This document shows positions 1,165-23,287 of a stretch of 28,914 nucleotides of DNA, one piece after another. Position numbers and translations under genes: made by a program. The notes below the pieces were generated by a model that was not told where the DNA came from, did no database searches, and was given only the letters and a program-made list of their open reading frames with translations. This DNA is from Bryobacterales bacterium (GTDB lineage: Bacteria; Acidobacteriota; Terriglobia; Bryobacterales; Bryobacteraceae). The stretch covers positions 1 to 28,914 of the forward strand of contig JAUZEU010000476.1 of NCBI GenBank assembly GCA_030838885.1. Direction: 5' to 3'. Position 1 is the stretch's first letter, and every line of letters begins with the position of its first letter.

Positions 1165-1254
1165 TACATTTATTCTAACGCGTCCTAAGTTGCTTATTTG
1201 CTGAAGATGCGTTCCCGGCCCGCGAATTCGAAACGTCAAAAAACCATCAATTTC

Positions 1255-1268
1255 TGAAAGCGATTACA
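1255..1268. promoter_or_regulatory. candidate LacI-family operator upstream of lacI
   Basis: TGAAAGCGATTACA, pseudo-palindrome with central CG, matches TGWAANCGNTNWCA; about 90 nt upstream of lacI ATG; 12/14 identical to site at 14387. Confidence 0.6.
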
Positions 1269-1962
1269 ATGCCTGGCTCACCGCAATCGCCTGGTTTTCC
1301 TTCACATCCTTCAGCACCTGAACTTGCCCTCCCGGCCAGCGGATCTCGATCCGGGACGCCGAATCATTTCGACCCAGGCCGAACCGCACCAGCGGCTCAC
1401 TGGACGAAGCGTATCCCACCGCTGTGGTCGCGTGGTTATATTGGACCGCGCCCGTCGGCAGCGTCAGTTTCACGTTCGCTCTGGTCCCCGGCAGACGCAA
1501 CGCCAGCCAGTGCGTTCGCACAGGGCTGGTATTCCGGAAGAACTTGGCCGCACCGTTCACTGCTGTCACCACGACGTCCACCCGCCCGTCACATCGAAAT
1601 CCGCAAACCGCGGCGCCATGGTACAGGGCAGGGGATTGGAAATCCTTCCCGGCGGTCGCTTAAACATACTCAAAGTACCCCCTGCCAACAATTCGCAGCA
1701 CATGGTTTGGCGTCTCCGCCGGAGAGTGTACATAAGGCTCAGATCCCGGAAAGTGGGAGGTGGCGAAGAACAGATCCTTACGACCGTCGTTATCCAGATC
1801 GAACATCTCCGCCCCCGCGGGACGCAAGGACACTTGCGCCTGAGAGAGCGGCCGCCCATCCAAGTCCGTCACTTTGCCGCGCACCAAAGGCCGGCTTGGC
1901 GGCTGATTTTGCGCGCAACAAACCAAACCCAATGCCACAGCCCACCCCAGCCGGCGATTCAC
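1264..1962 (-). pseudogene. degraded chimeric CRTAC1/FG-GAP-ASPIC/UnbV family gene
   Basis: ORFs 1660-1962 and 1264-1581 share a frame and are separated by TAA (1660-1662) in ...GYFEYV*ATAGKDFQ...; FG-GAP motif MFDLDNDGRKDLFF, ASPIC/UnbV tail GYASSSEPLVRFGLG...IEIRWPGG; +1/-1 indels scramble FADFDxDG. Confidence 0.75.
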
Positions 1963-3998: not shown

Positions 3999-4013
3999 CG
4001 TAATACCTCCCGG

Positions 4014-4053
4014 AAATTAAAATAGCGCGGCCGCGAAGTATCGCGGCCGCGCT
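4014..4053 (-). terminator. intrinsic terminator-like hairpin after TonB-dependent receptor
   Basis: 13-bp perfect stem AGCGCGGCCGCGA-(4 nt)-TCGCGGCCGCGCT at 4024-4053 followed on the minus strand by ATTTTAATTT. Confidence 0.7.
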
Positions 4054-4078
4054 GCTCAAGCCAACAATCCGGATCAGA

Positions 4079-7000: not shown

Positions 7001-7447
7001 GGTTTGAAGCGCGGCAGACTCTGCTGTAACTTCAACCGTCTGCGATTGCGCGCCAACCTGCAGGGCGGTATCGACGCGAACTACCGTATTCAGGCTGACC
7101 TGAACATTGTCGGTTGTGGAACCCTTGAAACCCTCTTTTAAAACGGCAACTTTGTAGGTTCCGGCGTGAACCGTCGACAGTGTAAAACCGCCGGACTCGT
7201 TCGTTTTGGTTTCGCGCGTCTCATTCGTTTCAGCCTGCGTCACCGTTACGGTCGCGCCCGAAACTGCGCCGCCGGAAGCGTCTGTCACGCTGCCTACGAT
7301 GGAGCCAAAGAGCACCTGAGCGCTGGCGGGCTGCAGCGTTGCAAGCAGCCACAGCGCGAAGCAAACTACTGTGAAGATGATGTATAACCGATTGCGCGAA
7401 ACGTGGCCGGGACCCGCGCGACGTTTCAGGCAGTGGGACTCTAACAT
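4079..7447 (-). CDS. TonB-dependent receptor with N-terminal carboxypeptidase-regulatory-like domain (Oar-like type)
   Basis: Signal peptide ...ASAQ, GSIVGSVTDASGGAVSGATVTV domain, plug segment EAIETVNVVTG...G, barrel ending RYLRFGLKIRF with terminal Phe; AAGGGG upstream of ATG. Confidence 0.95.
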   Translation of the reverse strand: MLESHCLKRRAGPGHVSRNRLYIIFTVVCFALWLLATLQPASAQVLFGSIVGSVTDASGGAVSGATVTVTQAETNETRETKTNESGGFTLSTVHAGTYKVAVLKEGFKGSTTDNVQVSLNTVVRVDTALQVGAQSQTVEVTAESAALQTDRADVHAEFSSKQLIDLPQPTRQFEGIVALMPGIAPPAASSGGTNNPSKSFQISADGTSRSGTNVLIDGVSATNPWVQFFATYAPSIEAIETVNVVTGSSGADQGMTNGASINVQTKSGTNSFHGSLYEYNITSALKARPYFLPANQGIPKLIENDLGVTAGGRIIKNKLFYFGSFEGDYIRQGSANPTVTIPTVAIRQGNLSASPTTIYDPATGTYDSKGIPTGRTPFPGNIIPANRISAISSKLTALLPNPNQNLGQILPANNYYVNTPISNDLKHYDTKVDWVASQKLKIAGRYGYQPYNITQPTIFGPILGGSPNSLQTGYATAYAATATYVFSPTFILDGNWGRTYAHQVLNPPSVDKKLGADFLGIPGTNLGQLPQAGGMPQFNITNYSGYGYSYSPLQYDDPVFQYAANATWIKGSHNVRFGLNMSQQHMNHFETTPTQFSFNGGATQSGPGGANANAFNTYADFLLGLPQRYVNSPAPSTPITLRTWQHSIYVQDTWQAHRKLTVAVGTAWEYYPVPTRGNRQIETYDFAKNQITLCGIGPNPSNCGITVQKLLFAPRIGIAYRPTDSMVIRAGYSLSPEQINMFRDGIYNYPVRVDYDQSGASPYSPVASLSDGIPVQAPVDISSGIITPPKGLVLGAIILPNQKFIRGYTESMNFTIQKDFGHGWVAQAGYVGTLTIHQHTRYNVNYATSLNGGSASQVFAPQGITGGITVILPYESQHYNSLQAQLNHRFDASGLLFGLAYTRSKAIGTCCDDSGDGGPAVALPQYTYLNKALMGSDRPNNLRVSAVYDLPFGKGKHFLNSNRFADAVVGGWHIQSIFSKYSGSPFSVSGGGALNTPGFTQRAQQVKQDVQILGNIGPGQSYFDPTAFVALTAPGVIGNAGFNTLRGPGVTNLDMSVFRDFKATERFTIQFRAESFNLSNTPHFSNPQGNTTNPAYAQITSTTTASRLIDERYLRFGLKIRF

Positions 7448-7606: not shown

Positions 7607-10425
7607 ATGAATCTTACCGCTCACGCTGTTCCGTTGATGCTGTTGGCCCTTCCGGCGGCTGCACAGGATCCCTCTGCTTTCTTTGAAAAGCAGATCCGGC
7701 CCGTGTTCGCCGCCAAATGCGCGCAGTGCCACAACAGCACTCTGAAGACGGCGGGCCTCGATCTCACCACGTCCGGCGGCATCGTGGCGGCAGCTTCCGG
7801 CAACCGTCTGGTCAAGGCGATCGGGTACGAAGATAAGACGAAGATGCCGCCATCCGGCAAGCTTCCGGACGTTGCGATTCAGGACATCACGACTTGGGTG
7901 AATTCCGGGGCGATAGTGCCGGACTACAAGCCGCTGGCGACTCCAACCGCCGGCGTTTTCAGCGAAGCGCGTCGCAGCCACTGGTCTTATCAGCCTGTTC
8001 GGAACGTAGCGCTGCCTGCTGTCAAACAGGTTGCCTGGGCGCAATCGCCTATAGATCGGTTTATCCTGGCGAAGCTGGAAGAGAAAGGTCTCACCCCTCC
8101 AAAGCCCGCAGACAAGGGGACGCTGATTCGGCGCGCCAAGTACGATCTTCTGGGGCTGCCACCCACGGAAGACGAGATCCGCGAATTTACCTCAGACAAC
8201 TCGCCAGATGCTTTCGCGAAGGTTGTAGATAAGTTCCTGGCGTCGCCTCACTACGGTGAGAAGTGGGGAAGGCACTGGCTGGATGTTGCGCGGTATGCCG
8301 AATCTTGTGGAGTGGATGAAAACGACGCTTACACCGAAGCCTGGCGCTATCGCGAGTACGTCATCGATGCATTCAACCGTGACGTTCCTTTCAATACTTT
8401 CATTCGCGAACAGGTGGCTGGTGATCTTCTTCCATCCGGCGATGGATCGCCGGTAAATGTGCGCGGCAGGGTGGCCACCGGGTTTCTCGCTCTTGGCCCA
8501 AGGCCACGGTTGAGATGGACAAACTGAAGACTGCATCGGATGTGATCGATGAGCAGATCGACACGACGTCGAAGGCCTTTTTGGGCCTGACCGTTGCGTG
8601 CGCGCGTTGCCACGATCATAAATTCGATCCGATCGCGACCAAAGATTACTACTCGATGGCCGCGATTTTCGCGAATACGAAGAGCTTTGACAATGCGAAG
8701 GGCGACTTCTTTACGGAGCGGAAATCGCGCCTTTATATGGCGCCTCTTGCGGACCAGGCGGTCTACGAGACTTACCGATTGCACCAGCAGAAGATCGCTG
8801 CGAGGACGATGCAGGCGACAGCATTGCTCGATAACGAGACCTGGAAATATGCATCGGCGAATCTCTTCCCGCGGATGGCCGATTACATGGCGGCAGCATG
8901 GAAAGCTCAGCATGGCACGAACGCCGATGAAATCGCCGCCATTGAGAAGCTTGACGCCTGCATCCTGAAGGAGTGGATAAAGTATCTCGATCCGAAAGGC
9001 GGGTTTCTTCCGCACCTGCAGCGCTGGCGTCAGGCGGATAAAGCGAATGTCGCTTCCGTGGCCCGAGAGTACGCCGGGCTTTTCCAGAAGACTGCTAATA
9101 GCTGGGGCGTCCAACTGGCGGAATGGAAGGTGGCCGTCGATGACGCTGTAGCTGGTAAGAGGGAATTGCCCAAGGCTCCCAATATCGAGTACAACAGCAC
9201 GACGGCATTCACAGATCCTTCAGAACGCCTGTTCGCCGACATCGTGATTCCTGCGCGCACGTTGAACGATAGGACCGCTAAAGACGGTCCGTTTGTTCTT
9301 CCGGCCAAAGAACAGGAGGATCATCTGTCGGCCGACATGAAAGTGCGTCTTGCGGAGCTTCGGAAGGAAGCAGACACCCTTAAGGAAAGCTCTCCGCCCA
9401 AGCCGCCGATGGCGAATGCCGTGGCGGAAGGCCCGAAGGTGGAACAGCATGTGTTTATTCGGGGCAACTACTCAAATCCCGGGGATCTGGTCGAGCCAGC
9501 CATGCCGACCATCCTTCGTGCCGCCGCGACTAAGCCCGTGGCGCAGGGAAGCGGCCGGCTGGAACTGGCGGATTTTCTCGCGAGCTCCGCCAACCCGCTG
9601 ACCGCCCGCGTGATCGTAAATCGGATGTGGTCCTGGCACTTCGGGGAAGGTCTGGTCCGCACGCCCAATAACTTCGGAATCATGGGTGAAGCGCCGACGC
9701 ATCCGGAGTTGCTCGACAATCTGGCGAAGCAGTTCATAGCCGGAGGGTGGTCCATGAAAGCCATGCACTGGACGATGATGCTCACCAGTCTGTATCAGAG
9801 CGCCAGTGAGACCTCTCCGGATGCTGCTCGTATGGACCCCGCGAACCGCCTTTGGTCCCGCTTTCAACGCCGCCGAATGACTGTGGAAGAGGTGCGCGAT
9901 ACCTGGCTGCAACTGGCCAACTCGCTCGATCTCAGGATGGGCGGCATCTTCGATCAGGTGGACGCGGAAGCCGGTGGCCGGGGTGGTCCGGATCGCGGAA
10001 TGCGCGGCGCTTCGCCAAGAAACTTTGACGTCAGCAAGCGGCGCACAGTCTACGTTGCGATTAACCGGAATGCGGTGGCTACTCCGATGGTTCTGTATGA
10101 CTTTGTCGACTCCACTACGAGTGCGGGTGACCGGCCGGAAACTATCATTGCCCCGCAGGCACTTTACCTGATCAATAACCCGTTTGTGGCGAACAATGCA
10201 AAGGCCTTTGCTGAGCGCCTTCTCTCGGACAAGACCCTTTCCGATGAGCAACGCATCGCGAAGGCTTACCAGATGGCATGGCAGCGCGAGGCAACCACGG
10301 CCGAGATGGGCAGCGCGTTGAATTACATCCGGCAATATCCGGCGGCTGCTAAGGCGGACTTCACTGGCTGGCAAAGTTTCTGCCGCATTCTGATGTCGGC
10401 AAACCAATTTCATTTCATTGATTAA
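7607..10425 (+). CDS. PSCyt1/DUF1549/DUF1553 (PSD1 and planctomycete cytochrome c) protein, interrupted by a 1-nt frameshift near 8500
   Basis: Signal peptide, CAQCH, DUF1549 motifs (HWSYQP, PIDRFI, LIRR..YDLLGLPP, GEKWGRHWLDVARYAES, ACARCHDHKFDPI), DUF1553 motifs (NPLTARVIVNRMW, PTHPELLD, QALYLINN); ORFs 7607-8527 and 8515-10425 join inside DUF1549. Confidence 0.88.
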
Positions 10426-10438
10426 CGAGGCACGCACG

Positions 10439-11824
10439 ATGATGAACCCGAGTCATTTTTCACGACGAGCGATGCTCCGTAAGAGCGCCTGCGGTTTCGG
10501 CATGATCGGCCTCAGCAGCCTGCTGGCGGCGGAAACCAATCCACTGGCGCCCAAGGCACCGCACTTCGCGCCCACTGCGAAGCGGGTCATCATGCTTTTC
10601 ATGGATGGTGGTCCTTCCCATGTGGATTCCTTCGACCAGAAGCCCCTGCTCGACCGCGATCATTTGAAGCCACCGCCGTTCAAGCTGGGGACTACTTTCA
10701 ATCCGGTTGGCGCGCTCATGAAGTCGCCGTGGGCGTTCAACCGCTATGGGCAAATGGGAATGCCGGTTAGCGATCTGTTTCCCAACGTGGCACAGCATGT
10801 GGACAAGATCACCTTCATGCATTCGATGGTTGCAGATGGCCTGGACCATGGCGGCGCACTGCTCCAGATGCACACAGGGACTCTGACGCTAACCCGTCCG
10901 TCTATGGGTTCATGGATACTCTACGGACTCGGTACTGAGAATCAGAACCTGCCGGGCTTTCTGACTATTCGCCCGCACACGGGCCACAGCGGGGTGCGTA
11001 ACTGGAGCACGGCTTTTCTGCCCGGCGCTTACCAGGGCACTCCTGTTGGGGTGTCGCGCCCCAGGCTGGAAGACGTCCAGAAAGAGCCTATTGAGAATCT
11101 GTTGCCGCAGGGCCTCAGCCCTGAACAACAGCGATATGAACTCGACATGCTGCGCAACGTCAACCTGAAACAGGCAGAGCTGAACAAGTATGACGAGCGA
11201 TTGGAATCTCGCATCCAGTCGTTTGAACTTGCTTTCCGGATGCAGGCTGAAGCTCCCGATGCGTTCGATACTTCAAAGGAATCGGAGGCCACTAAGAAAC
11301 TCTATGGGGTAGACGATCCGGCAACGGCTGACTATGGCTGGCAGTGCCTGTTGGCGCGGCGGCTGGTGGAGCGTGGCGTTCGCATCGTGCAGTGTAATTC
11401 AGAGGGTTGGGACCAGCACACGGAACTGGCTCGACGCCATGCGGAACAGGCACGGATGGTGGATAGGCCAATCGCGGGGCTGCTGGCAGATCTGGAATCG
11501 AGGGACATGCTGAAGGACACGCTCGTCATCTGGGGCGGGGAATTCGGCCGTACACCGGTTATGGAGAAAGATGGCCGGGATCACAACCCGTATGGCTTTA
11601 CGTTCTGGATGGCCGGCGGTGGCGTGAAGCGCGGCTTCCGCTATGGCGCGACTGACGATTACGGCTATAACGCGGTTGAGGACCGAATGCATGTGCATGA
11701 TTTCCATGCGACGGTGCTGCATCTGCTTGGCCTGGACCACAAACGCCTCACCTATCGATATAGCGGCAGGGACTTCCGGCTGACGGATGTTTATGGTGAT
11801 GTCGCGAAGAAGATCCTGGCGTGA
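10439..11824 (+). CDS. DUF1501 domain protein (alkaline phosphatase/sulfatase-like fold), twin-arginine signal
   Basis: SRRAMLR...GFG signal; AKRVIMLFMDGGPSHVDSFD, RPSMGSW..YGLG, WDQH, WGGEFGRTP, GRDHNP, HDFHAT.LHLLG.D, RDFRLTDV; GAGG 8 nt before ATG 10439. Confidence 0.93.
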   Translation: MMNPSHFSRRAMLRKSACGFGMIGLSSLLAAETNPLAPKAPHFAPTAKRVIMLFMDGGPSHVDSFDQKPLLDRDHLKPPPFKLGTTFNPVGALMKSPWAFNRYGQMGMPVSDLFPNVAQHVDKITFMHSMVADGLDHGGALLQMHTGTLTLTRPSMGSWILYGLGTENQNLPGFLTIRPHTGHSGVRNWSTAFLPGAYQGTPVGVSRPRLEDVQKEPIENLLPQGLSPEQQRYELDMLRNVNLKQAELNKYDERLESRIQSFELAFRMQAEAPDAFDTSKESEATKKLYGVDDPATADYGWQCLLARRLVERGVRIVQCNSEGWDQHTELARRHAEQARMVDRPIAGLLADLESRDMLKDTLVIWGGEFGRTPVMEKDGRDHNPYGFTFWMAGGGVKRGFRYGATDDYGYNAVEDRMHVHDFHATVLHLLGLDHKRLTYRYSGRDFRLTDVYGDVAKKILA

Positions 11825-11867: not shown

Positions 11868-13946
11868 TTAGGGCAGAGCTAACGCGACTAACTCTGCCGG
11901 GAAACCCGCCGCGCCAACTGCTACAACGATGAACTGCCGCCCGTCCGCCATATAAGTCATCGGGACGCCCGTGGTCATGGCAGGCAGAGTCATCTCGTGA
12001 ATGACTTTGCCGGTCTTCTTATCTATGGCGCGGAACGTGTTACCCCCAGCCCCCGCCGGGCTGGCCCAGAGGTTATTCCCGTCCGATCCGAACAACAACG
12101 ACTTCGTCACCATCAGCAACGACCGCGACGGCTTGCCCGTATTACTCAGGTCAATCCCTTTCAGTGCGGGATGATTTTTGATGTAATCCGGCGCATCGCC
12201 GTTGGCGATGGTCCACATGTGGTCGCCAGAGTTCAGGTCGATTGCCGTGATTCTTCCCCATGGTGGTTTGACAAGAGGCAGGCCCTGAGGGCCGACATTG
12301 GTACGTGCTGCAGGCCGCATGGCGAAACTTTCGCTGTCGTCCGTGTTGCCGGAGAAGGTGGGGGGAGCGATTCGGGCCGGGCCGCCATTCGCGTTGCCTG
12401 TTGTGCCGGCGGGCGCTCCGCCACGTGCGGGGCCGCCGCGACCGCCGCCGACGTAACCCATGTCCGACCTCTTCGGGTCAGCCTTTGTGACGGAGAGAAA
12501 CTCACTCTGGGTGACCGATGCCACGTAAAGCACACCGGTTTCCGCATCCACTGCGCCGCCTGGCCAGTTCACGCCGCCCACATGCGCGGGAAGCAGAAAC
12601 AGAGCGGATTTTCCATCTGTATCCGGCACGATCGGGGGTGAATAGAGCGGGCCCATTTTGTATTGGGAGGCGATCTTCAGCGCTTCCTGTCTCAACGCCG
12701 GTGTGAAGTCAATCAGAACGTCAGGGCTGGAACCCTGGCGGTCAAACGCAGCGGGCTTGGTGGGGAACGGCTGCGTGGGTGAAGTCCTCTCGCCAGGCAC
12801 ATCGGACTGCGGCACCGGGCGCTCCTCGATCGGCCACACCGGCTGCCCCGTAACCCGGTCGAATACAAAGGCGAAAGCCTGCTTTGTAACCTGCGCTACA
12901 GCCTTAATCTTCTTGCCATCTTTGTTGATGTCCACGAGGATAGGGGGCGCGGCGATATCCCAATCCCAGACGTCGTGGTGAACCAGTTGGTAGTGCCAGA
13001 CGCGTTTGCCGGTGCGTGCATCCAGACACACCAGGCTGTCGGAGAACAGATTGGCGCCCGGGCGGTTCCCGCCATAGAAGTCTCCGGTCGGCATCTCGAC
13101 CGGGATGTAGACGTAGCCAAGTTCTTCATCCGCGCTCAGCGGCGCCCAGGCGCCCGTGTTGCCGGAGTACTTCCAGGAATCGTTCTCCCATGTTTCATTG
13201 CCAAACTCGCCAGGCCGGGGAATCGTTTTGAAGGTCCAGATCTTCTTCCCCGTGCGCACGTCGAAGCCGCGGATGTAACCGGGCACGTTCTCTTTGGTCG
13301 TCGGAGCCGTACCCGCCAGCAATGCCGCGCCCACCACAACCGTATCCTTTACGATAATCGCCGGGGAACTTGCGCCGATTTGTCCCGGTTTCACCGCCGG
13401 GCGATCCAGGCCCTCGGTCAGTTCAACCTTGCCACTTGTGCCGAAGGTGGTGATTGGCAGACCGGTCTTTGCGTTGAGCTCTATAAGTTGGTAGCCGGGA
13501 GAAATCACCAGAATTCTCTCGTCGCCCTTACCGTCGGTCCAGTATGCGAGCCCGCGATTCACCACTCGGGCAACTACGGTTCCGCGAGGGCCTTCATCCA
13601 GCCGGTAGATCCAAAGCGTTTCGCCCGTCACCGCATCTACTGCAACCGCGTCACGCCGGGTACCTGCGGTGAAGTACAGCACCCCGCCGGCCATGAGCGG
13701 CGTGACTTCCCAATTGAAATCCGGGCGCTTGCCGAAATTCTGCGCCTTCCATTCCCAAACGATTTTTAGGTCCTTCACGTTCGAGGCATTGATCTGGTCG
13801 AGCGCCGAGTATTTGGTAGACCCGGCATCGCCGCCGTAAAAGTGCCATTCGCCGTTCTGCGCGCCACGCTGTGCACACACCGGCAGCGTTCCGACTGCCT
13901 GCAGCACTGTCAGAGGCACAATCCACCGCAACCCGTTTATTGCCAT
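11868..13946 (-). CDS. PQQ-dependent dehydrogenase (quinoprotein glucose/quinate/shikimate dehydrogenase-like beta-propeller), soluble and exported
   Basis: W..YGGD..STKYS.LDQIN..NV..L, Trp-docking repeats, QLVHHDVWDWD, PTQPFP, PPWG.ITAIDL, PMTY..DGRQF; signal peptide instead of N-terminal TM helices; GAGG RBS. Confidence 0.92.
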   Translation of the reverse strand: MAINGLRWIVPLTVLQAVGTLPVCAQRGAQNGEWHFYGGDAGSTKYSALDQINASNVKDLKIVWEWKAQNFGKRPDFNWEVTPLMAGGVLYFTAGTRRDAVAVDAVTGETLWIYRLDEGPRGTVVARVVNRGLAYWTDGKGDERILVISPGYQLIELNAKTGLPITTFGTSGKVELTEGLDRPAVKPGQIGASSPAIIVKDTVVVGAALLAGTAPTTKENVPGYIRGFDVRTGKKIWTFKTIPRPGEFGNETWENDSWKYSGNTGAWAPLSADEELGYVYIPVEMPTGDFYGGNRPGANLFSDSLVCLDARTGKRVWHYQLVHHDVWDWDIAAPPILVDINKDGKKIKAVAQVTKQAFAFVFDRVTGQPVWPIEERPVPQSDVPGERTSPTQPFPTKPAAFDRQGSSPDVLIDFTPALRQEALKIASQYKMGPLYSPPIVPDTDGKSALFLLPAHVGGVNWPGGAVDAETGVLYVASVTQSEFLSVTKADPKRSDMGYVGGGRGGPARGGAPAGTTGNANGGPARIAPPTFSGNTDDSESFAMRPAARTNVGPQGLPLVKPPWGRITAIDLNSGDHMWTIANGDAPDYIKNHPALKGIDLSNTGKPSRSLLMVTKSLLFGSDGNNLWASPAGAGGNTFRAIDKKTGKVIHEMTLPAMTTGVPMTYMADGRQFIVVAVGAAGFPAELVALALP

Positions 13947-13966
13947 TTAGCTTTCCTCGCGCCACG

Positions 13967-14374
13967 CTACTTTTTTGCTTCGATCCGGATCTCATTCATG
14001 GCGGCCAGTTCCCGATCCAGTTCTTTCTCCCCGGCGGGAAAGTCGTTCGCTTTGAGAATGAACGCGGCGAGATCGGAGTACTGGCGCATGCTCAGATGCC
14101 CCGGATCGTCCGTAGGCATGGTCTTGCGCATGAATTCGAAAAGCGCCCCCACCGTCTTTCCGTTCCAGCGGCTCAGGAATTCCGGCCCGGTGAGTTCAGG
14201 AGAGCCATCCCCGCCGGTCAGATTTTCGGAGTGGCATTTGGCGCACTCTTCGCGGTAGACAGTCTGTCCACGTATGGCCTGGTCTTTTGTGTAAACGCCG
14301 TCCTGGGCCGAACGTGCTGCGGCAAGAATGGGAATGATGGCGGACAGAAAGATCGCAACGCGGGCTCGGCGCAT
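13967..14374 (-). CDS. monoheme c-type cytochrome, likely partner of the PQQ enzyme
   Basis: Signal peptide, VYTKDQAIRGQTVY..ECAKCH, Met ligand candidate in KTMP; 20 nt upstream of the PQQ gene. Confidence 0.9.
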   Translation of the reverse strand: MRRARVAIFLSAIIPILAAARSAQDGVYTKDQAIRGQTVYREECAKCHSENLTGGDGSPELTGPEFLSRWNGKTVGALFEFMRKTMPTDDPGHLSMRQYSDLAAFILKANDFPAGEKELDRELAAMNEIRIEAKK

Positions 14375-14386
14375 AAGAGGTCTTGG

Positions 14387-14400
14387 TGAAAACGATTGCA
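14387..14400. promoter_or_regulatory. candidate LacI-family operator upstream of cytochrome c-PQQ operon
   Basis: TGAAAACGATTGCA, 12 nt from the cytochrome c ATG, at about +1 to +14 of the predicted minus-strand promoter. Confidence 0.65.
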
Positions 14401-14407
14401 GCTATGG

Positions 14408-14436
14408 AACTTATAACAGTGGGGGTTCTCTGTCAA
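14408..14436 (-). promoter_or_regulatory. candidate sigma70 promoter for cytochrome c-PQQ operon
   Basis: Minus strand TTGACA (14436-14431)-N17-TAAGTT (14413-14408). Confidence 0.6.
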
Positions 14437-14472
14437 GGGGACGGAACCCCCCTATGGATAGGGCGATTCAAG

Positions 14473-14500
14473 TTGACCTGAAGCCGTCATTTCATATAAG
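14473..14500 (+). promoter_or_regulatory. candidate sigma70 promoter for alpha-hydroxy-acid oxidase pair
   Basis: TTGACC-N16-TATAAG, 22 nt upstream of the TTG start at 14523. Confidence 0.55.
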
Positions 14501-14522
14501 CTCGGCGCACAGTGGTGAAGTC

Positions 14523-15680
14523 TTGAATCGCAGGGAATCTCTTCGTGCTTTGGGGGCGTTTTTGGCAGGCTCGCCGCTGCTTGCGCAGCAGGATCCCCTG
14601 CGTGATCACACGCGGGTTCCGGGGCTGAACGAACTGTTAACGGCTTTCGATTTCGAGGCAGTGGCGTATACGAAGCAGCCGCGCGCGGTTTACGATTACC
14701 GGGCGTATGGTTCGGACAGCGAGTTTACGCTGCGCCGCAACCGTGAGGCGTTCGAATGGGTGGAGTTGATTCCGAAGCGCGTGGTGGCGGGTCCGGTGTC
14801 CACCGCATGCGAAGTGTTCGGGACGAAGATGGCGTTCCCTCTGATTGTGTCTCCGACGGCAGCCCATGGTGAACTTCATCCGGAGGGCGAACTCGCCACT
14901 CATAAGGGCGCGCTGGCGGCGGCGAGCACGCCGATGATTCTGAGCAACAATACCAGTTTCCCGTTCGACAAAGTGGTGGCGGCAGCGGGGAGCCCTATGT
15001 GGGTGCAGCTGTACCCGAAACAGCAGCTTGAGGCCAACCGGTCGTATCTGGAAAGCGCACAGGCGGCCGGGGCGAAGGCAGTGGTGGTTACTATCGACCA
15101 GCAGGTCTCGTACTACGAGCGCTCGCTGCATGACCGGAATCTGAACAGCAGTACGCGGGGTAGTGCGCGTGGTCCGGGAATGCGCCCGACGATGGGGAAT
15201 CCGTACCGCGTGGCCGATAACCGCCTGTGGTACGAGTGGAAGTTTTTCGATGAGATTCGCCCTTTTGTGAAGGTGCCAATGATTGCCAAAGGCGTGGTAA
15301 CGCCGGAGGATGCGAAGCTCTGTCTGGAGCACGGGGTGGATGGTGTTTATGTTTCCAACCATGGTGGGCGCTCGCTGGACTACGGCCCTTCGACTCTGGA
15401 AGTGCTGCCCGAGATTGTGGATGCGGTGCATGGACGCGTGCCGGTGCTGTTCGACAGCGGGATTCGCCGGGGTTCAGATATTTTGAAAGCCCTGGCTCTG
15501 GGCGCGAGCGCGGTGTGTATCGGGCGCGTGCCGTTGTGGGGGCTTGGATCGTTTGGTGCAGCCGGCGTGCAGCGTGTGCTGGAGATTTTGCAGGCCGAAC
15601 TGGTGCAGGCAATGCAATATACCGGGTGCACTACGTTGGCGTCCGTAGATCGTAAGATGTTGCTGACGAATTTCCCGTAG
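14523..15680 (+). CDS. FMN-dependent alpha-hydroxy-acid oxidase/dehydrogenase with twin-arginine-like signal peptide
   Basis: TTG start gives MNRRESLRALGAFLAGSPLLAQQ; VYDY, WVQLY, VTID, KGV, VSNHGGRSLD, DSGIRRGSD..KALALGA, GR; upstream in-frame starts lie 5' of the promoter. Confidence 0.9.
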   Translation: MNRRESLRALGAFLAGSPLLAQQDPLRDHTRVPGLNELLTAFDFEAVAYTKQPRAVYDYRAYGSDSEFTLRRNREAFEWVELIPKRVVAGPVSTACEVFGTKMAFPLIVSPTAAHGELHPEGELATHKGALAAASTPMILSNNTSFPFDKVVAAAGSPMWVQLYPKQQLEANRSYLESAQAAGAKAVVVTIDQQVSYYERSLHDRNLNSSTRGSARGPGMRPTMGNPYRVADNRLWYEWKFFDEIRPFVKVPMIAKGVVTPEDAKLCLEHGVDGVYVSNHGGRSLDYGPSTLEVLPEIVDAVHGRVPVLFDSGIRRGSDILKALALGASAVCIGRVPLWGLGSFGAAGVQRVLEILQAELVQAMQYTGCTTLASVDRKMLLTNFP

Positions 15681-15683
15681 AAC

Positions 15684-16631
15684 ATGCCACAGATAAAAGG
15701 AGAACCGGCCGGACGTATTGCGCCTTTTGAGGAACTGGTGAATGCGCTGGAGTTCGAGGCAATGGCGCAGCGGAAGCTGGATAGCCTCACGTATGCGCTG
15801 GTGGCGACTGGCGGCCGGAAGGCCCTGGACCGTATTACGCTGCGTCCGCGCGTGATGGTGAATACGACAAAGCTCGATCTGACGCTGGACCTGTTCGGGC
15901 TTCAGATGTTTGCGCCGATTTTGATTGGGCCTGTGGCGCAGCAGAAGCGTTTTCATCCCGAAGGCGAACTCGCAATGGCGAAGGGCGCTGCGGCGGCCAA
16001 AGCGGTCGTGGTGATTTCGGATCGTTCGAGCCAGCCGCTCGATCAGGTAACCCCGTTGTGTACGGCTGGGTTCTGGTATCAGATCTATGCCGAGGCGGAT
16101 ATGACTGCGGCGGCGGGTCGCGCGAAGGCGGCGGTGGCGGCGGGCGCCAGGGCGGTGTGTCTGACGCTGAGTAGTTCCGGGCTGGACTGGAGCGGTGTCG
16201 AACGCGTGCGGCAGTCGTTGAAAGCGCCATTTGTGCTGAAAGGCGTGATGAGTGCGGAAGAGGCGCAGGCATGCGTGCAGAAGGGCGTGCAGGGGATTGT
16301 GGTTTCGAACTATGTCGACGGACCTTCCGCGGGTCTGGCTTCGCCGATTGAAGTTCTGCCGGGAATCGCGGACGCGGTGGGGGGGAAGATACCGGTCCTG
16401 ATGGATGGCGGGCTGGTGCGTGGCGCCGATATGTTGAAGGCGCTGGCCTTGGGCGCGCGTGGGGTTTTGATTTCCCGGCCGGCAGTTTGGGGATTGGCTG
16501 GCTACGGAGCGGATGGAGTGCAGCGGGTTACGGAGTTGCTGCAGACCGAGCTTGCGCGGGATATGGCCATGACGGGGAAGCCGGGTTTGAAGATGATTGA
16601 CCGAAGCACTGTGAAGGTGCATCGCTGGTAA
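15684..16631 (+). CDS. alpha-hydroxy-acid oxidase-like protein lacking catalytic residues
   Basis: Family motifs APILIGP, HPEGELA, YQIY, LKGV, DGGLVRGAD.LKALALGA, SRP retained, but SNHGGR is SNYVDG and TxD is TLS; starts 3 nt after the previous stop. Confidence 0.88.
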   Translation: MPQIKGEPAGRIAPFEELVNALEFEAMAQRKLDSLTYALVATGGRKALDRITLRPRVMVNTTKLDLTLDLFGLQMFAPILIGPVAQQKRFHPEGELAMAKGAAAAKAVVVISDRSSQPLDQVTPLCTAGFWYQIYAEADMTAAAGRAKAAVAAGARAVCLTLSSSGLDWSGVERVRQSLKAPFVLKGVMSAEEAQACVQKGVQGIVVSNYVDGPSAGLASPIEVLPGIADAVGGKIPVLMDGGLVRGADMLKALALGARGVLISRPAVWGLAGYGADGVQRVTELLQTELARDMAMTGKPGLKMIDRSTVKVHRW

Positions 16632-16860
16632 GTGCCAGGCGCCCGGCCCGGCGGGCGACGTTTCAGGGTTGAAACCAGGTGAGCTGAGACGAAAACATGG
16701 CTAAAACGGCGTAACCTGTGTGTTTTGAGTAAAACTTATCCTGAGCGTGGTTACCGACTCGCTGGAGCAGTACGGTAGAGGCAGCCGAGATCAATCGGCT
16801 CTCAGATTCCGGCTGAGGCGCTAAAGTTCCGATCGATTTCCGCCGATTCGTTCAACAGTA

Positions 16861-18918
16861 ATGGAAGATGCCCGGAGATTGGTAGTTTGTCTGCTCGCCC
16901 TGACGTTTCCACTACTCGGGGCCGGCGAAGTTCGGAGTTCGCCGCGTACCATTTTCGGGGATGGCAGCCGCCTGGCAGTTTTGACTCGCGCCCATGATGT
17001 CCAGATGCTTTCGGTGGTGGAGGCAAAACGTGGATACCCGGTCAAACTGCGCGGCGTAGTGACATACATGGACAGGTTTGAAGGAAATCTGGCTGATGCA
17101 TTCATTCAGGACGACACTGCCGGCATTTTCGTGTTCTTGCAAAAGTCCGCCGTTCAGTTGCCTGTTCACACGGGACAGATCGTCGAAGTTTCCGGTGTCT
17201 CGACGCCGGGCGACTTTTCTTCCTGCGTGGCAAACGGGCAGATCAGAATCCTTGGCGAAGGGTCAATGCCGAAGCCGAAGCACCTGGTGTATGAGGAACT
17301 TCTGGGCGCGAAAGAGGACGGGCGGTGGACGGAACTCGAGGGGGTGGTCCGCTCCGGACAGATAAAGACCGGGCGGCTGTTCTTGAATGTGGCCACGTTT
17401 GGTGGAACGTTCCTGGCTATCATGCCGGCTTATTCAAAGGACTGGGCCAATACGCTGGTGGACTCCAGGGTTGCGTTGCGCGGCGTTGTCGCGGCGATTT
17501 TCAATGATCGACGGCAATCAGTGGGCTTCAGGTTGTTCGTGCCGGATCCTTCGTTTGTTCATATTCAGGAGCCTGCGCCCGCCAATCCGTTCGAACTGGA
17601 AATAGCTCCCACGGTAGCTGTGGGTCAATTCCGCCCCCAAAGTTCGCTCGAGAGGCGAATCCGGGTCCGCGGTGTCGTGACGGCGGTTGAACCGGGAGTT
17701 GCTGTTTACCTCTCGGACGGGCAGGGAAATCTTGAGGTGCAGTCGGCCCCGTTCTGTCCGGTGAAGGCGGGCGATGTTCTCGATGCAGTTGGCTTTCCCG
17801 GTCATGTTAATGGCCGTCCGGGTTTACAGGACTCGATTTGCCGCAGGGTGAAAGATTCCGCAAAGGTGGAAGCCGTGCCAGTGACCGCTGACGAGGTGCT
17901 TCCAGCACTTATCGAAACCGATCCAAGCGGTTATGGCCTGCAAGCAGGTAAGAAGTACGATGCAACCCTGGTCAGCATTGAAGGGAAACTTCTGCAGTAC
18001 TCTGAAGGTCCCAACGGGTACACGCTGGTTCTTTCGGCAGGGAAAAGGACGTTTTCGGCGTTGATGCCGTCGAGCGGCGAGGTTCCGCGCGTTGAAACCG
18101 GAAGCCGAATTCGCCTGACTGGTGTTTGCCTCGTGACGTTCGATCCGTACCGGCGAGGACAATACTTTCGGATCCTGCTTCGGGTGCCGGGAGATGTCGT
18201 GGTTCAGGAACGACCCCCGTGGTGGAATTTGCGCAAGGCACTTTGGGCTCTCTGCGCGTTCTCTTTTTTGTCCGCGCTCACCTGGATTCTGGTGCTGCGA
18301 AGCCAGGTCGCTCAGAGAACACGCCAATTGCACGAAATTTCTCTTCTGGATCCGCTCACGGGCGCGGCTAATCGTCGGCACTTTGACGAGAGGCTCGCGG
18401 CTGAATATGACCGAGCGCGCCGATCCGTATCACCACTTTCTCTTCTCATGGTAGACATTGACCACTTCAAGGCGCTGAACGATAGTGAGGGGCACCCGCG
18501 TGGCGACGCATATCTCCGGCAGGTGGTGGGTATTTTGCACACTGTGGTGACGCGCCGCCAGGATCTGGTGGCCCGTTACGGAGGAGAGGAGTTTGCTGTG
18601 GTTCTTTCAGATACGCCGGCGGAAGGTGCACGGATGTTGGCCGAGGCTATACGGATGCGAGTGGAGCGGCTGGCAATTCCGAACTCCGGGCTGCCGTCTG
18701 GCAAGGTACTCTCGGTCAGCGTCGGGGCCGCGACGTGGCTCAGCTCTGACGAGGGGTCGGCGGCGGATCTGGTTGCTGAGGCGGACCGGGCGCTTTATCA
18801 GGCCAAATCGCTTGGTCGCAACTGCACGGTTACTGTGGAGATTGGGGGGCAATGCGAACTGCGGTCCATTGTGGCTGGGAACTATTATTCGATAATTGGT
18901 CCATCCAGGCAGGGATAA
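16861..18918 (+). CDS. membrane-anchored diguanylate cyclase with extracytoplasmic OB-fold-like repeats
   Basis: Signal peptide, four V/L-x-G-V/K-V/L repeats, PPWW plus one TM helix, DPLTG..NRR, DIDHFK..ND, I-site RRQD, ARYGGEEF. Confidence 0.93.
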   Translation: MEDARRLVVCLLALTFPLLGAGEVRSSPRTIFGDGSRLAVLTRAHDVQMLSVVEAKRGYPVKLRGVVTYMDRFEGNLADAFIQDDTAGIFVFLQKSAVQLPVHTGQIVEVSGVSTPGDFSSCVANGQIRILGEGSMPKPKHLVYEELLGAKEDGRWTELEGVVRSGQIKTGRLFLNVATFGGTFLAIMPAYSKDWANTLVDSRVALRGVVAAIFNDRRQSVGFRLFVPDPSFVHIQEPAPANPFELEIAPTVAVGQFRPQSSLERRIRVRGVVTAVEPGVAVYLSDGQGNLEVQSAPFCPVKAGDVLDAVGFPGHVNGRPGLQDSICRRVKDSAKVEAVPVTADEVLPALIETDPSGYGLQAGKKYDATLVSIEGKLLQYSEGPNGYTLVLSAGKRTFSALMPSSGEVPRVETGSRIRLTGVCLVTFDPYRRGQYFRILLRVPGDVVVQERPPWWNLRKALWALCAFSFLSALTWILVLRSQVAQRTRQLHEISLLDPLTGAANRRHFDERLAAEYDRARRSVSPLSLLMVDIDHFKALNDSEGHPRGDAYLRQVVGILHTVVTRRQDLVARYGGEEFAVVLSDTPAEGARMLAEAIRMRVERLAIPNSGLPSGKVLSVSVGAATWLSSDEGSAADLVAEADRALYQAKSLGRNCTVTVEIGGQCELRSIVAGNYYSIIGPSRQG

Positions 18919-19144: not shown

Positions 19145-19546
19145 TCAGCGGGTGTTGAGGTTGGCAAGCTCTGGAAATTGTTGGTTCTCACATTGCAGGC
19201 ATTTCTTCACGGCCGTGATTAGCTGACTCTGGGAGAATGGTTTTTCCAATACGGCGCAAAGGGCCTTTAAGTCCTCAGGCGCGATGTCCTCCGGGCTGAA
19301 TCCAGTCATCAGGATGACCTTTGATTTCGGTTGGAGTTCGAAGATATTGCGGGCCAACTCCAGGCCGCCCATTATTGGCATCGCAATGTCCGACAAGGTA
19401 AGTGCAATCTCGGAGCTCATTTCCTGATAGAGTTCCAGCGCCTGTGATCCATTCTGAGCGAGAATCGGAATGAAGTCGTGGCGGGCCAGTATGGCTGCGC
19501 AGACGTCGCGGACAGCTTGCTCATCATCGACAACCAGGATTTTCAC
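19145..19546 (-). CDS. single-domain response regulator (receiver)
   Basis: ILVVDD, LSDIAMP (phosphoacceptor Asp), MTG, KPF. Confidence 0.92.
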   Translation of the reverse strand: MKILVVDDEQAVRDVCAAILARHDFIPILAQNGSQALELYQEMSSEIALTLSDIAMPIMGGLELARNIFELQPKSKVILMTGFSPEDIAPEDLKALCAVLEKPFSQSQLITAVKKCLQCENQQFPELANLNTR

Positions 19547-20722: not shown

Positions 20723-23287
20723 TCACTTCGATTTCTCCACGCTATGGACGCACATCGCGGGGCCTCGATCATGCGTTACATTTCCGAGGATTGTTGGGCG
20801 GAGTTCAACGGCGCCGGCCGGATTCCGGACCCGAACTCCTGAAACCGCAGCCCCGGTTACGGCGAATCGAGGCCTGCCCAGAAGCAAGCCCTGCATCTCA
20901 TCGCATCCCAGGCTGCTGAGCAGGTGCAGTTGAGCGGTTGTCTGCACGCCTTCGCCGATCACCCGCAGCCCAAGAGTATGGGCCAATTCCACAACACACC
21001 GTAACACCGCGGCTCCACGCGGCCGGCTCTCATTTTCAGTGAGGAACGCCCGGTCGATCTTCAAGGCATCAAGGGGCAGCTTCTGCAGGTAGCTCAAAGA
21101 CGAATAGCCAGTACCAAAATCGTCGAGCGCTATCGTCACGCCGAGGTTTCTGAGCTTCGCCATAGTGTGGGCCGACTCCTCTGCATCACGGATGAAAACA
21201 CTTTCCGTCAATTCGAGTTCCAGCAGGCGCGCGGGGAGCCCCGTCGATTCGAGCGTCTGCACAACAATCTCGACGAAATCCGGACACGCGAACTGGGAAG
21301 CCGAAACGTTGACAGCGACCCCGGTCCCCCTCAAGGTTCCCGTTTGCCACTCCGCGCACTGCCGGCAAGCCTCGCGGAGAACCCAGGTACCGATCGGGAT
21401 GATCAAACCGTTCTGCTCCGCAATGGGGATGAATTTCAGGGGCGGTGTAGAGCCATGATCGGGCGAATACCAGCGAACCAGGGCTTCGAAGCGGCTTGGG
21501 AGCGACCTGCCCGGAGCAAACTGAGGCTGAAACATCAGTCTAAATTCCGACAGCGAGAGAGCCCTTCGGAGTCGTGTTTCCATCTCCAGCCGTTCGCGCG
21601 CTACATCCGCATATACGGGGGTGAAGAATCTGAGCTGGTTCTTGCCAGCCCGCTTTGCTTCGTGCATTGCGACGTCGGCGCCCCTTTGCAGCACTTCCGG
21701 GTCAGTCCCATTTTCCGGGAAGAGACTGATGCCAATGCTGGCGCCGATAAACACCTCCCGGTCGGCTATTCTGAATGGCTCGTCCAGGCAGGTGATCAGT
21801 TTGTTGCCGAGATGGCGCACCGCGTCCGGACCTCCGAAGCCGGCGGCAACAAGGGTAAATTCATCGCCGCCGAAACGGGCCAGGGTGCCGGATTCACCGC
21901 AAACCGCGAGCAACCGTTGAGCGACCTCTTTCATCAGCAGATCGCCCGCGGAGTGGCCCAGCGTATCGTTCACCAGTTTGAAGTGGTCGAGATCGATAAA
22001 AATGACCGCGACGGACGTCCCGGCGGCGCACTCATTGATCGCTTGTGCCAGTTTCTCCCGGAACAGTCTCCGGTTAGGAAGATCCGTCAACTCGTCATAC
22101 AGAGCCTGATGAAGCAGCTGCAACTCCGAGAGCTTCCGTTCGGTCATGTCTTCGGCGACACCAGCAAGGCGCACGATATTGCCGTCGCTGTCGCGAACAG
22201 GAAAAGCGCGATCGCGAATCCAGCGGACGGCGCCGGATGGCTGCACGATGCGGTATTCGTTTTCGAGGATTTCTCCCTGGACCTGGCGTAAGAATGCTTC
22301 TTGTGCCCGCGACCGGTCCTCCGGATGTATGGAATGCGTCCAGTTTTCCGGATTCGTGTGAAGGTCCTCGCATGGCTGCCCCCAAACCTTTTCGTAGGCC
22401 GGGCTCACGTAAAGCACCTCTTTTGATGCCGAGTCTGTCATCCAGAAGACCTCGCGGATGTTTTCGGCCAGTTGGCGAAATTTTTCCTCGCTGCTCCGCA
22501 GGCTTTGCTCGGATTGCCTGGACTCGGTAATGTCTGGACAGAGGCCTACGTGTCCCAGGAATTCGCCGCCCGGCGATAAGCGCGGATCCGCGCGCGTTTC
22601 GAGCCACCGCCACTCACCATCGGCGCGCCGGACGCGGGCTGCGGCCGTGAAAGGCGCGTGTTCCCGTAAGGCACGGTGGAATGCCGCCGCAAACTCCGGC
22701 CGCTCGTCCGGGTGAATCAGCAACTGCCACTTGCCTCCCTGGACCTGTTCGCGGCCAGTACCGAAGAATTCCCGGTACGCCCTGTTGATGAACTGAACCT
22801 CGCCCTCTACGTTCGTCACCCACATCAACATCGCGCAACCATCGGCCATGATGCGGAAGCGATCTTCACTCTCGTGCAGCGCTTCCTCGGTCCGCTTGCG
22901 CTCCGTGATGTCTTCCACGTGGACAACGGAATACAACGGGTTGCCGCCGCTGTCTCTTACCAGCGAAACCCTCATACGGGTCCACACCACCGTTCCGGTA
23001 CGGTGCATGCAGCGCATTTCCGCGTCCGCGCATCCGATCCAGCCCGTCCACAGATGTTCCCTCCTCTGTTGGGCAGACCCCTGATCATCGGCGTGGATCA
23101 GGTCCGGCCAGGTTGTGTCCATCAGTTCCTGTTCGGAATAGCCGAGCATCCGGCAAAACGCACCATTCACGTGGAGGAAGCGCCAGTCCAACCCGCAGAC
23201 GCAAATGCCGAAAGGCGCGTGTTCAAAGGCCCCGCGGAATCTTTCTTCGCTTTTCTGCCGTAATCGTTCCACGTTAAAAGACCTCAC
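20723..23287 (-). CDS. 3xPAS/PAC-GGDEF-EAL cyclic-di-GMP enzyme
   Basis: Three SE.RFR/KFR-PAS-D(I/M)TE modules, YDELTDLPNR, DLDHFK.VND, ARFGGDEF, FEALVRW, LELTES, DDFGTGYSSL, LKID, EGV, DEMQG; alternative GTG start at 23272 has a better GAGG spacing. Confidence 0.93.
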   Translation of the reverse strand: MRSFNVERLRQKSEERFRGAFEHAPFGICVCGLDWRFLHVNGAFCRMLGYSEQELMDTTWPDLIHADDQGSAQQRREHLWTGWIGCADAEMRCMHRTGTVVWTRMRVSLVRDSGGNPLYSVVHVEDITERKRTEEALHESEDRFRIMADGCAMLMWVTNVEGEVQFINRAYREFFGTGREQVQGGKWQLLIHPDERPEFAAAFHRALREHAPFTAAARVRRADGEWRWLETRADPRLSPGGEFLGHVGLCPDITESRQSEQSLRSSEEKFRQLAENIREVFWMTDSASKEVLYVSPAYEKVWGQPCEDLHTNPENWTHSIHPEDRSRAQEAFLRQVQGEILENEYRIVQPSGAVRWIRDRAFPVRDSDGNIVRLAGVAEDMTERKLSELQLLHQALYDELTDLPNRRLFREKLAQAINECAAGTSVAVIFIDLDHFKLVNDTLGHSAGDLLMKEVAQRLLAVCGESGTLARFGGDEFTLVAAGFGGPDAVRHLGNKLITCLDEPFRIADREVFIGASIGISLFPENGTDPEVLQRGADVAMHEAKRAGKNQLRFFTPVYADVARERLEMETRLRRALSLSEFRLMFQPQFAPGRSLPSRFEALVRWYSPDHGSTPPLKFIPIAEQNGLIIPIGTWVLREACRQCAEWQTGTLRGTGVAVNVSASQFACPDFVEIVVQTLESTGLPARLLELELTESVFIRDAEESAHTMAKLRNLGVTIALDDFGTGYSSLSYLQKLPLDALKIDRAFLTENESRPRGAAVLRCVVELAHTLGLRVIGEGVQTTAQLHLLSSLGCDEMQGLLLGRPRFAVTGAAVSGVRVRNPAGAVELRPTILGNVTHDRGPAMCVHSVEKSK

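Follow-up and report, generated by a model that had tools for sequence, protein, structure and literature searches.

An intact FMN-dependent 2-hydroxy-acid oxidase and its catalytically degenerate paralogue: a conserved gene pair of Acidobacteriota predicted to encode a Tat-exported heteromer

Gene Organization of the Locus

The DNA analysed here (the window) is a stretch of 28,914 nucleotides (nt) from a Bryobacterales bacterium, namely positions 1-28,914 of contig JAUZEU010000476.1 (assembly GCA_030838885.1), read on the forward strand. Two adjacent genes encode paralogous members of the flavin mononucleotide (FMN)-dependent alpha-hydroxy-acid oxidase/dehydrogenase family (PF01070, FMN_dh), the first intact and the second catalytically degenerate. 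Homologues of gene 1 are called alpha and those of gene 2 beta. Residues compared between sites are numbered as in glycolate oxidase (GOX), based on a HMMER alignment to the spinach enzyme (1gox/1gyl). The following features of the pair were located, with protein lengths in amino acids (aa).

14523..15680, plus strand: gene 1 (alpha), intact FMN-dependent 2-hydroxy-acid oxidase/dehydrogenase, 385 aa from TTG 14523
14523..14591, plus strand: signal peptide of alpha of the twin-arginine translocation (Tat) type, MNRRESLRALGAFLAGSPLLAQQ; the mature N-terminus begins with the DPxRDH motif
14697-14699, plus strand: alpha Tyr24 equivalent
15012-15014, plus strand: alpha Tyr129 equivalent
15096-15098, plus strand: alpha Asp157 equivalent
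15120-15122, plus strand: alpha Arg164 equivalent
15288-15290, plus strand: alpha Lys230 equivalent
15360..15371, plus strand: alpha HGGR, catalytic (His254 and Arg257 equivalents)
15678..15683, plus strand: alpha-beta junction TAG AAC (alpha stop at 15678-15680, one codon, then the beta ATG at 15684, all in one reading frame)
15684..16631, plus strand: gene 2 (beta), 315-aa FMN_dh paralogue, catalytically degenerate, without lid loop and without signal peptide
15699..15719, plus strand: GEPAGRI, beta-specific N-terminal motif; in relatives it is the mature N-terminus, directly after the protein's own Tat signal or a fusion linker
16164..16172, plus strand: TLS replacing TxD (Asp157 to Ser163); the lid-loop deletion follows directly, with 23 aa instead of 64 before Lys186
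16239..16241, plus strand: Lys186, the Lys230 equivalent (FMN N1/O2 contact), kept; Lys in 119 of 119 betas
16311..16322, plus strand: YVDG replacing HGGR (Tyr210 for His254, Gly213 for Arg257)

Gene 1 matched PF01070 with an E-value of 5.6e-99 and 331.9 bits (cut-off 24.9), and the full catalytic set was present. Its start can be placed at several codons. The gene caller chose ATG 14454 (408 aa, P0346), and the longest open reading frame (ORF) runs from 14328. The alphas of relatives align only from residue 66 of this long ORF, where a TTG is found at 14523, preceded by GGTGAAG. Under either the TTG 14523 or the ATG 14454 start, the N-terminus contains NRRESLRALGAFLAGSPLLAQQ, a signal of the twin-arginine type.

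No obvious Shine-Dalgarno sequence was seen at the alpha-beta junction, and a promoter and terminator scan of positions 13900-17000 found nothing. Since an in-frame TAG lies 3 nt ahead of its ATG, the beta of the window can have no N-terminal extension and hence no signal peptide; it starts at the mature-type GEPxGRI motif. Reading of the sequence thus upheld an earlier description, made from the DNA letters alone (the sequence-only reading), of an intact gene 2 that begins 3 nt past the stop of gene 1 and lacks a signal peptide.

Degenerate Active Site of the Beta Protein

Gene 2 is an intact ORF of 315 aa that matched PF01070 with an E-value of 1.6e-73 and 248.2 bits (gathering cut-off 24.9), and relatives in the PDB matched it at 1e-52. 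The two proteins of the window share 35% identity. In gene 2, Tyr210 (TAT at 16311-16313) stands in place of His254, Gly213 in place of Arg257, Ser163 (in TLS) in place of Asp157, Leu39 (in TYAL) in place of Tyr24 and Arg114 in place of Trp108. The Arg164 equivalent is deleted, so that of the set His254, Asp157, Arg257, Arg164, Tyr24 and Tyr129 only Tyr129 survives. In addition, a 9-aa gap follows the Tyr24 region, and the stretch from Asp157 to Lys230 is 23 aa long in gene 2 versus 64 aa in gene 1, with about 40 aa of the lid loop missing.

The flavin site presents another picture. The motifs WYQIY (Gln127, Tyr129), LKG (Lys230), DGG..RG and SRP (Arg309) are still present, and gene 2 retains Lys230, Gln127, Tyr129, Thr155, Ser252, Asp285 and Arg309. 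The FMN-phosphate arginine Arg289 is Val in gene 2 and is Val, Gln or Ile across the beta subclade of the window. The glycolate oxidase alignment agrees with what the sequence-only reading had described, that is, the replacement of HGGR by YVDG, of VYDY by TYAL and of TxD by TLS, the deletion of a short segment (given as about 10 aa) and of the lid loop, and the retention of the FMN-contact motifs, with Arg289 as Val. In NCBIfam, no specific model for beta was found, the best matches being MftD and LldD, far below their cut-offs; no NCBIfam or PDB family with the residue pattern of beta was found either.

Conservation and Selection in the Beta Family

A search of 5.8 billion proteins recovered at least 120 beta homologues of 258-370 aa with 55-91% identity. 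All of them come from Acidobacteriota metagenomes and metagenome-assembled genomes (MAGs) of Bryobacteraceae, Solibacteraceae and Terriglobia. The idea of a lineage-specific oddity was rejected, given at least 120 homologues in multiple genomes and in further classes of the phylum. The degenerate pattern of gene 2 is not due to chance because it recurs in more than 100 homologues. Tyr24, Asp157, Arg164 and the lid are absent from all 25 betas of the compared loci, and the 9-aa and lid-loop deletions are universal in betas. The His254 position is occupied by Tyr in 18 and by His in 7 of these 25, and Arg257 remains in 4; among about 120 betas the His254 position is Tyr in 106-107 (about 89%) and His in 8. 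The Trp108 position is Arg, His or Lys in 103 of 119 betas (about 87%). The alpha set (Tyr129, Asp157, Arg164, Lys230, His254 and Arg257) was kept in 23 of 23 locus alphas and is invariant in 108 of 108 alphas from the database. Such a loss is unusual for the family, because the five substrate residues are 97-100% conserved in its active members, which form tetramers or octamers (PMC9670274).

Column entropy was compared between 119 betas and 108 alphas. In betas, the FMN-contact positions Pro77, Gln127, Thr155, Lys230, Ser252, Asp285, Gly286 and Arg309 showed at most 0.07 bits, all but two of them exactly 0. The substrate positions of betas reached 1.94 bits (Tyr24), 1.95 (Tyr129), 1.22 (Asp157), 2.47 (Gly255) and 2.58 (Arg257), whereas the same positions in alphas lay at 0-0.2 bits. 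The mean column entropy was 1.08 bits for beta and 0.94 for alpha.

The ratio of nonsynonymous to synonymous substitution rates (dN/dS) of beta was 0.08-0.20, estimated by the Nei-Gojobori method from less diverged pairs of other loci that were unsaturated at synonymous sites; pairs with the window itself were saturated (nearest DNA 76% identical). Individual pairs gave 0.20 (L020/L021), 0.12 (L115/L116) and 0.15 (L031/L117), and alpha gave 0.03-0.17 in the same genome pairs. The low dN/dS and the near-zero entropy of the FMN contacts show purifying selection on beta, which maintains its fold and flavin site but no longer constrains the substrate site. The dN/dS check proposed in the sequence-only reading therefore speaks for a maintained pseudoenzyme sequence and not for neutral drift, with values that come from loci other than the window. 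Beta is homologous to an enzyme, has lost the catalytic residues and nevertheless stays under purifying selection, which is what the term pseudoenzyme denotes, and this status, predicted from the lost residues together with selection, is supported.

Pairing and Phylogeny

Wherever the DNA ahead of beta could be read, alpha was its immediate upstream neighbour, and the two genes often overlap by 4 nt (ATGA); genome G303 is the exception. The search for adjacent active and inactive homologues, which had been suggested as a check, showed that about 35 loci, which represent two or more classes of the phylum, have kept the pair. In a sample of 201 genomes of the class, beta was present in 8; the same 8 genomes have alpha orthologues (E-value at most 1e-90), and the remaining 193 lack them. 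At all 8 loci alpha lay immediately upstream on the same strand, mostly with the ATGA overlap. GTDB contigs L025-L031 are likewise organized alpha-beta, and the gene order is reversed in L032. Every metagenome contig with upstream DNA (L105-L117) has alpha ahead of beta, and outside the class the pair is present in 7 of the 8 loci studied in the phylum (L186-L192). Genome G041 contains two complete alpha-beta pairs, and two of the genomes with the pair, G437 and G497, consist of a single contig each. No neighbour beyond the pair itself was conserved across the loci compared.

In the exception, the complete genome G303 (C1:749629-750791; L193 3056-4198), beta is truncated at the C-terminus and matches residues 7-281 only, and the sole alpha-like gene lies 4 Mb from beta and is split by a frameshift. 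Both partners appear to be broken there, which looks like joint decay.

According to the maximum-likelihood tree, alpha and beta each form a clade with a Shimodaira-Hasegawa-like approximate likelihood ratio (SH-aLRT) support of 100, and the two are sisters (97-99) relative to ten further FMN_dh proteins, taken from this phylum and from others. The internal groupings of the two clades are similar, and the pairwise distances correlate with r=0.77. Judging from this tree, alpha and beta stem from one old duplication that was followed by co-divergence. Betas that retain His254 (L019/L020, L031/L117, L023, L018, L022) tend to branch early, and for this reason the lid, Asp157 and Tyr24 were probably lost first and the change from His to Tyr came later.

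On one metagenome contig (L122, 2-1620), the gene behind a partial alpha encodes a catalytically intact paralogue of full length that has a Tat signal of its own. This paralogue falls at the unresolved base of the alpha/beta split and may be a relic of the state before degeneration.

Signal Peptides and Natural Fusions

All 21 alphas examined have a signal of the RRxALRxLAGFLAGSPLLxxQQ type followed by DPFRDH. Among 119 betas, 36 carry a full RR signal resembling that of alpha, 17 a shortened one in which the RR is kept and the hydrophobic core is gone, and 56 none. Signal-less betas begin at the GEPxGRI motif. They are nested among signal-bearing ones, and the tree requires that the signal state changed three or more times. 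Such a variable signal is the pattern expected if beta were always periplasmic and able to ride on alpha. TatC (PF00902) is encoded in the same genome as the window (contig C507, E-value 3e-59). The proposal of the sequence-only reading that gene 2 is exported as a Tat hitchhiker thus found its elements in place, namely a Tat carrier, a signal-less passenger, TatC and variable loss of the beta signal; co-export itself is putative.

Alpha and beta also occur as one polypeptide. A single protein of 687 aa was found in three MAGs and one metagenome contig (L033, L034, L041, L124), and its layout is a Tat signal, alpha, a linker of about 15 aa and beta. The database contains 11 fusion clusters of 684-746 aa with mutual identity down to 48%, and in each of the 11 a single RR signal opens the chain and alpha precedes beta. 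At the fusion junction, the mature GEPxGRI motif of beta or its position is kept, and a short linker replaces the beta signal. Fusions fall in three groups of the tree, in the alpha half and the beta half alike. Well-supported branches require at least two independent fusion events, and the fusions probably make up three separate clades. Within fusions both domains are under purifying selection, with a dN/dS of 0.10-0.16 (alpha) and 0.15-0.19 (beta).

In the window, read-through of the stop or a single stop-to-sense change at 15678-15686 would yield a chain of 702 aa with a layout comparable to that of the natural fusions.

Predicted Structure

Two chains were modelled with AlphaFold2. The natural fusion from L033 gave a mean predicted local distance difference test score (pLDDT) of 83.7 and a predicted template modelling score (pTM) of 0.55, and the read-through chain of the window gave 84.3 and 0.53. 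Both barrels were mostly above a pLDDT of 90 and show the triosephosphate isomerase (TIM) barrel fold, and the alpha lid was disordered. The alignments used consisted of fusions and betas only, so that the alpha domain was shallow and about a dozen paired sequences were available; the low pTM is probably caused by these few paired sequences. A joint alignment of fusions, alphas and betas was discarded, as the betas landed on the alpha domain. In a Foldseek search, one barrel of the fusion matched glycolate oxidase, HAO1 and mandelate oxidase with template modelling (TM) scores of 0.83-0.92 (normalised by target length).

Proposed Model

Based on the above results, we suggest that genes 1 and 2 probably encode an obligate heteromeric, Tat-exported, periplasmic FMN-dependent (S)-2-hydroxy-acid dehydrogenase/oxidase in which beta would be non-catalytic. 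The comparative evidence for an obligate alpha/beta unit is strong. Alpha, with all catalytic residues of the family and a twin-arginine signal, would do the chemistry. Beta, which stems from an old duplication of alpha, has lost Tyr24, Asp157, Arg164, the lid and usually His254 and Arg257 while keeping the TIM barrel and the FMN contacts. It would most likely substitute for alpha subunits in the oligomer, which in this family normally consists of identical subunits. There, non-catalytic but probably loaded with FMN, it may be required for the assembly or stability of the oligomer or for docking of the acceptor. Because the beta of the window has no signal peptide, we propose that it folds and binds alpha in the cytoplasm and then crosses the membrane on the Tat signal of alpha.

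Several points weigh against this model. Adjacency, co-occurrence and fusion also occur among enzymes that catalyse successive steps of a pathway without ever forming a stable complex. AlphaFold2 gave no confident barrel-barrel placement or interface for either the L033 fusion or the read-through chain, and Foldseek returned single-domain matches alone for the fusion, with no two-domain match to PDB 7f20. The signal peptides were classed by eye, from an RR motif and a hydrophobic stretch. FMN binding is less certain in the beta subclade of the window because of the replacement of Arg289. Finally, a remodelled active site in beta is possible, since the Tyr at the His254 position and the basic residue at position 108 are so widely conserved.

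Neighbouring Genes

Two genes upstream of the pair, both on the opposite strand, may bear on its function.

13967..14374, minus strand: small c-type cytochrome, 135 aa (PF13442/PF00034), divergent from the pair
11868..13946, minus strand: soluble pyrroloquinoline quinone (PQQ)-dependent dehydrogenase of the glucose/quinate/shikimate type, 692 aa (PF01011, E-value 8e-185)

The 135-aa cytochrome is a candidate periplasmic electron acceptor, and homologues of cytochrome c were found near the pair in L022, L026 and L032. The PQQ dehydrogenase of the window matches TIGR03074 from profile position 151, and the membrane anchor is therefore missing. Its homologues adjoin the pair in L017, L026 and L032 and lie directly downstream on the same strand in L186 (4614-6695), L187 (1222-3201), L188 (1195-3231) and L192 (4184-5875), loci of another class of the phylum with the order alpha, beta, PQQ dehydrogenase. 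This linkage with PQQ dehydrogenase and cytochrome c recurs without being universal, and genes for PQQ dehydrogenases abound in these genomes. The linkage weakly suggests that the pair, the PQQ dehydrogenase and the cytochrome form a periplasmic oxidation chain. It is conceivable that the flavoenzyme oxidizes a 2-hydroxy acid made by the PQQ enzyme, for example a sugar acid, with cytochrome c as acceptor. In L032 (9211-11215), the homologue of the PQQ dehydrogenase, which stands beside a reversed beta-alpha pair, is itself split into two overlapping ORFs.

Further genes of the window were annotated as follows. On the plus strand, positions 7607-10425 encode a DUF1549 (PSCyt2)/DUF1553 (PSD1) protein that appears to be split between two overlapping ORFs, with PSCyt2 cut at profile position 146/157. 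The cause is a frameshift or else a mistake in the assembly. Next comes a DUF1501 gene (10418-11824). Downstream of the pair, a GGDEF diguanylate cyclase with a large, periplasmic-looking N-terminal part is encoded at 16861-18918 (plus strand). The translation of 19145-19546 (minus strand) resembles, as judged by eye, a single-domain response regulator, and a PAS-GGDEF-EAL protein is encoded at 20723-23287 (minus strand). No link of the GGDEF, response regulator and PAS-GGDEF-EAL genes to the pair was seen at other loci. At 163-7447 (minus strand) lie genes for a regulator of the LacI type, for a TPR protein in which a weak cytochrome c3 motif was seen and for a large outer-membrane barrel of the TonB-dependent type (OMP_b-brl_4). 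Barrels of the TonB type are frequent in these genomes, and L017 and L022 also have them close to the pair.

Alternative Explanations

A more specific version of the heteromer model would make beta a redox relay or docking subunit, whose exposed, lidless FMN takes electrons from alpha or holds the acceptor and passes them to cytochrome c, so that a dead paralogue becomes part of a two-flavin wire. The invariance of the FMN contacts in beta, including Lys230, which stabilizes the reduced flavin, together with the universal lid deletion, is consistent with such a role, as is the cytochrome c gene near the pair in the window and at the three loci named above. The apparently engineered tandem lactate oxidase in PDB 7f20, with one loop-deleted copy, indicates that this architecture can fold. 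On the other hand, cytochrome c is not a conserved neighbour, and beta might equally retain FMN because its fold needs it for stability or because Tat quality control demands it. Flavin-flavin distances in the known oligomers of the family are probably too long for direct transfer, which also counts against a relay. On balance, we consider it unlikely that beta is a relay. The corresponding picture of beta as a second, substrate-blind redox centre that stands in for the haem domain of flavocytochrome b2, with the two paralogues Tat-exported as a pair, appears similarly doubtful. If the relay were real, it would be a new wiring of a 2-hydroxy-acid oxidase into the respiratory chain, and the intact, shortened, lost and fused beta signals would be successive stages in the evolution of hitchhiking.

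It is less probable still that beta is itself an enzyme, whose open, rebuilt site (Tyr210, the basic residue 114, Lys186 and FMN) would act on the product of alpha or on a bulkier substrate in a two-step pathway. The retained FMN site would allow it, and the Tyr found at the His254 position in 106 of 119 betas and the Arg, His or Lys at the Trp108 position point the same way; some early-branching betas also keep His254, and 4 of the 25 locus betas keep Arg257. Unlike a working active site, however, the pocket varies among close orthologues. The Tyr24 position is E, L, A, S, K, T, G or R, Tyr129 is changed to F, A, G, T or P, and the positions of Arg257 and Gly255 reach 2.6 and 2.5 bits. Nor does any family found in NCBIfam or the PDB have such a residue pattern.

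A further alternative is a cytoplasmic beta that is not bound to alpha and acts as a co-transcribed sensor, chaperone or regulator of alpha maturation. The missing signal peptide in the window would fit, and so would the failure of AlphaFold2 to give a confident alpha-beta interface (pTM 0.53-0.55). However, many orthologous betas bear their own Tat signal, the signal-less ones are nested among them, and the fusions place beta behind the signal of alpha. For these reasons the beta family as a whole appears to be built for the periplasm, and we regard a cytoplasmic role as very improbable.

Functionless decay of a duplicate, which the lost catalytic residues and the two deletions might suggest, is refuted for practical purposes by the purifying dN/dS of 0.08-0.20, the invariant FMN contacts, the ORF kept intact in at least 120 homologues down to 55% identity, the strict co-occurrence with alpha and the maintenance of beta inside fusions.

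Comparison with Known Systems

The heteromeric pair proposed here has relatives in several respects. Both genes share the TIM barrel and the FMN-contact residues with the alpha-hydroxy-acid oxidase/dehydrogenase family (PF01070), which includes glycolate oxidase, L-lactate oxidase, LldD, mandelate dehydrogenase and flavocytochrome b2. Alpha, with its full catalytic set, is an ordinary-looking member, and a characterized relative, PauLDH, also has a predicted Tat signal (PMC9670274). The known PF01070 enzymes are described as tetramers or octamers of identical subunits, each with a complete active site, whereas here an intact subunit is obligately paired or fused with a degenerate, lidless paralogue. 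A heteromeric or pseudoenzyme member of PF01070 was not found in the literature searched.

Export of signal-less subunits by Tat hitchhiking is described for PaoABC of E. coli (PMC4273604), and the gamma and alpha subunits of the flavin adenine dinucleotide (FAD) glucose dehydrogenase of Burkholderia cepacia are a Tat hitchhiker pair (PMC6719666). As in these systems, a twin-arginine carrier is accompanied by a signal-less, cofactor-loaded partner, in our case as predicted from the genes. The setting is also alike, with a periplasmic flavoprotein dehydrogenase that possibly feeds cytochrome c. In both known systems, however, carrier and passenger are unrelated, whereas beta is a paralogue of its carrier, and in the alpha/beta system the signal of the passenger is intact, shortened, absent or replaced by a linker depending on the lineage. 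No case of Tat hitchhiking by a pair of paralogues was found in the literature searched.

Beta resembles pseudoenzyme partners in general in that a dead paralogue under purifying selection stands beside an active one on which it apparently depends, and differs from them in that it seems to keep the cofactor site.

The PDB entries 7f20, 7f21 and 7f22, named L-lactate oxidase (720-736 aa), consist of tandem copies of one sequence, one of them without the lid loop according to the alignment. They look like an engineered construct, and no paper for 7f20 was found in the literature searched. Like the natural fusions, 7f20 has two FMN_dh barrels per chain, one of them lidless. Its two copies are the same lactate oxidase and both are catalytically intact, whereas the beta copy of the natural fusions is degenerate.

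Implications

If the heteromer model is true, a flavoenzyme family that has stood in textbooks for decades would gain a new quaternary design, in which two subunits are obligately combined and one of them is a conserved dead paralogue. Beta would also be an unusually clean case of a pseudoenzyme, with the cofactor site kept and the substrate site freed from selection. The full, shortened, lost and fused signals of beta would provide a natural series for studying how Tat hitchhiking evolves. The automatic names "4-hydroxymandelate oxidase" and "alpha-hydroxy-acid oxidizing protein" are probably wrong for beta. Alphas of these Acidobacteria may be inactive or unstable when expressed without beta, a point to consider when enzymes are mined for uses such as lactate or glycolate biosensors. 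Furthermore, the soluble PQQ dehydrogenase that is repeatedly linked to the pair hints that these abundant soil bacteria possess a periplasmic oxidation route not yet studied.

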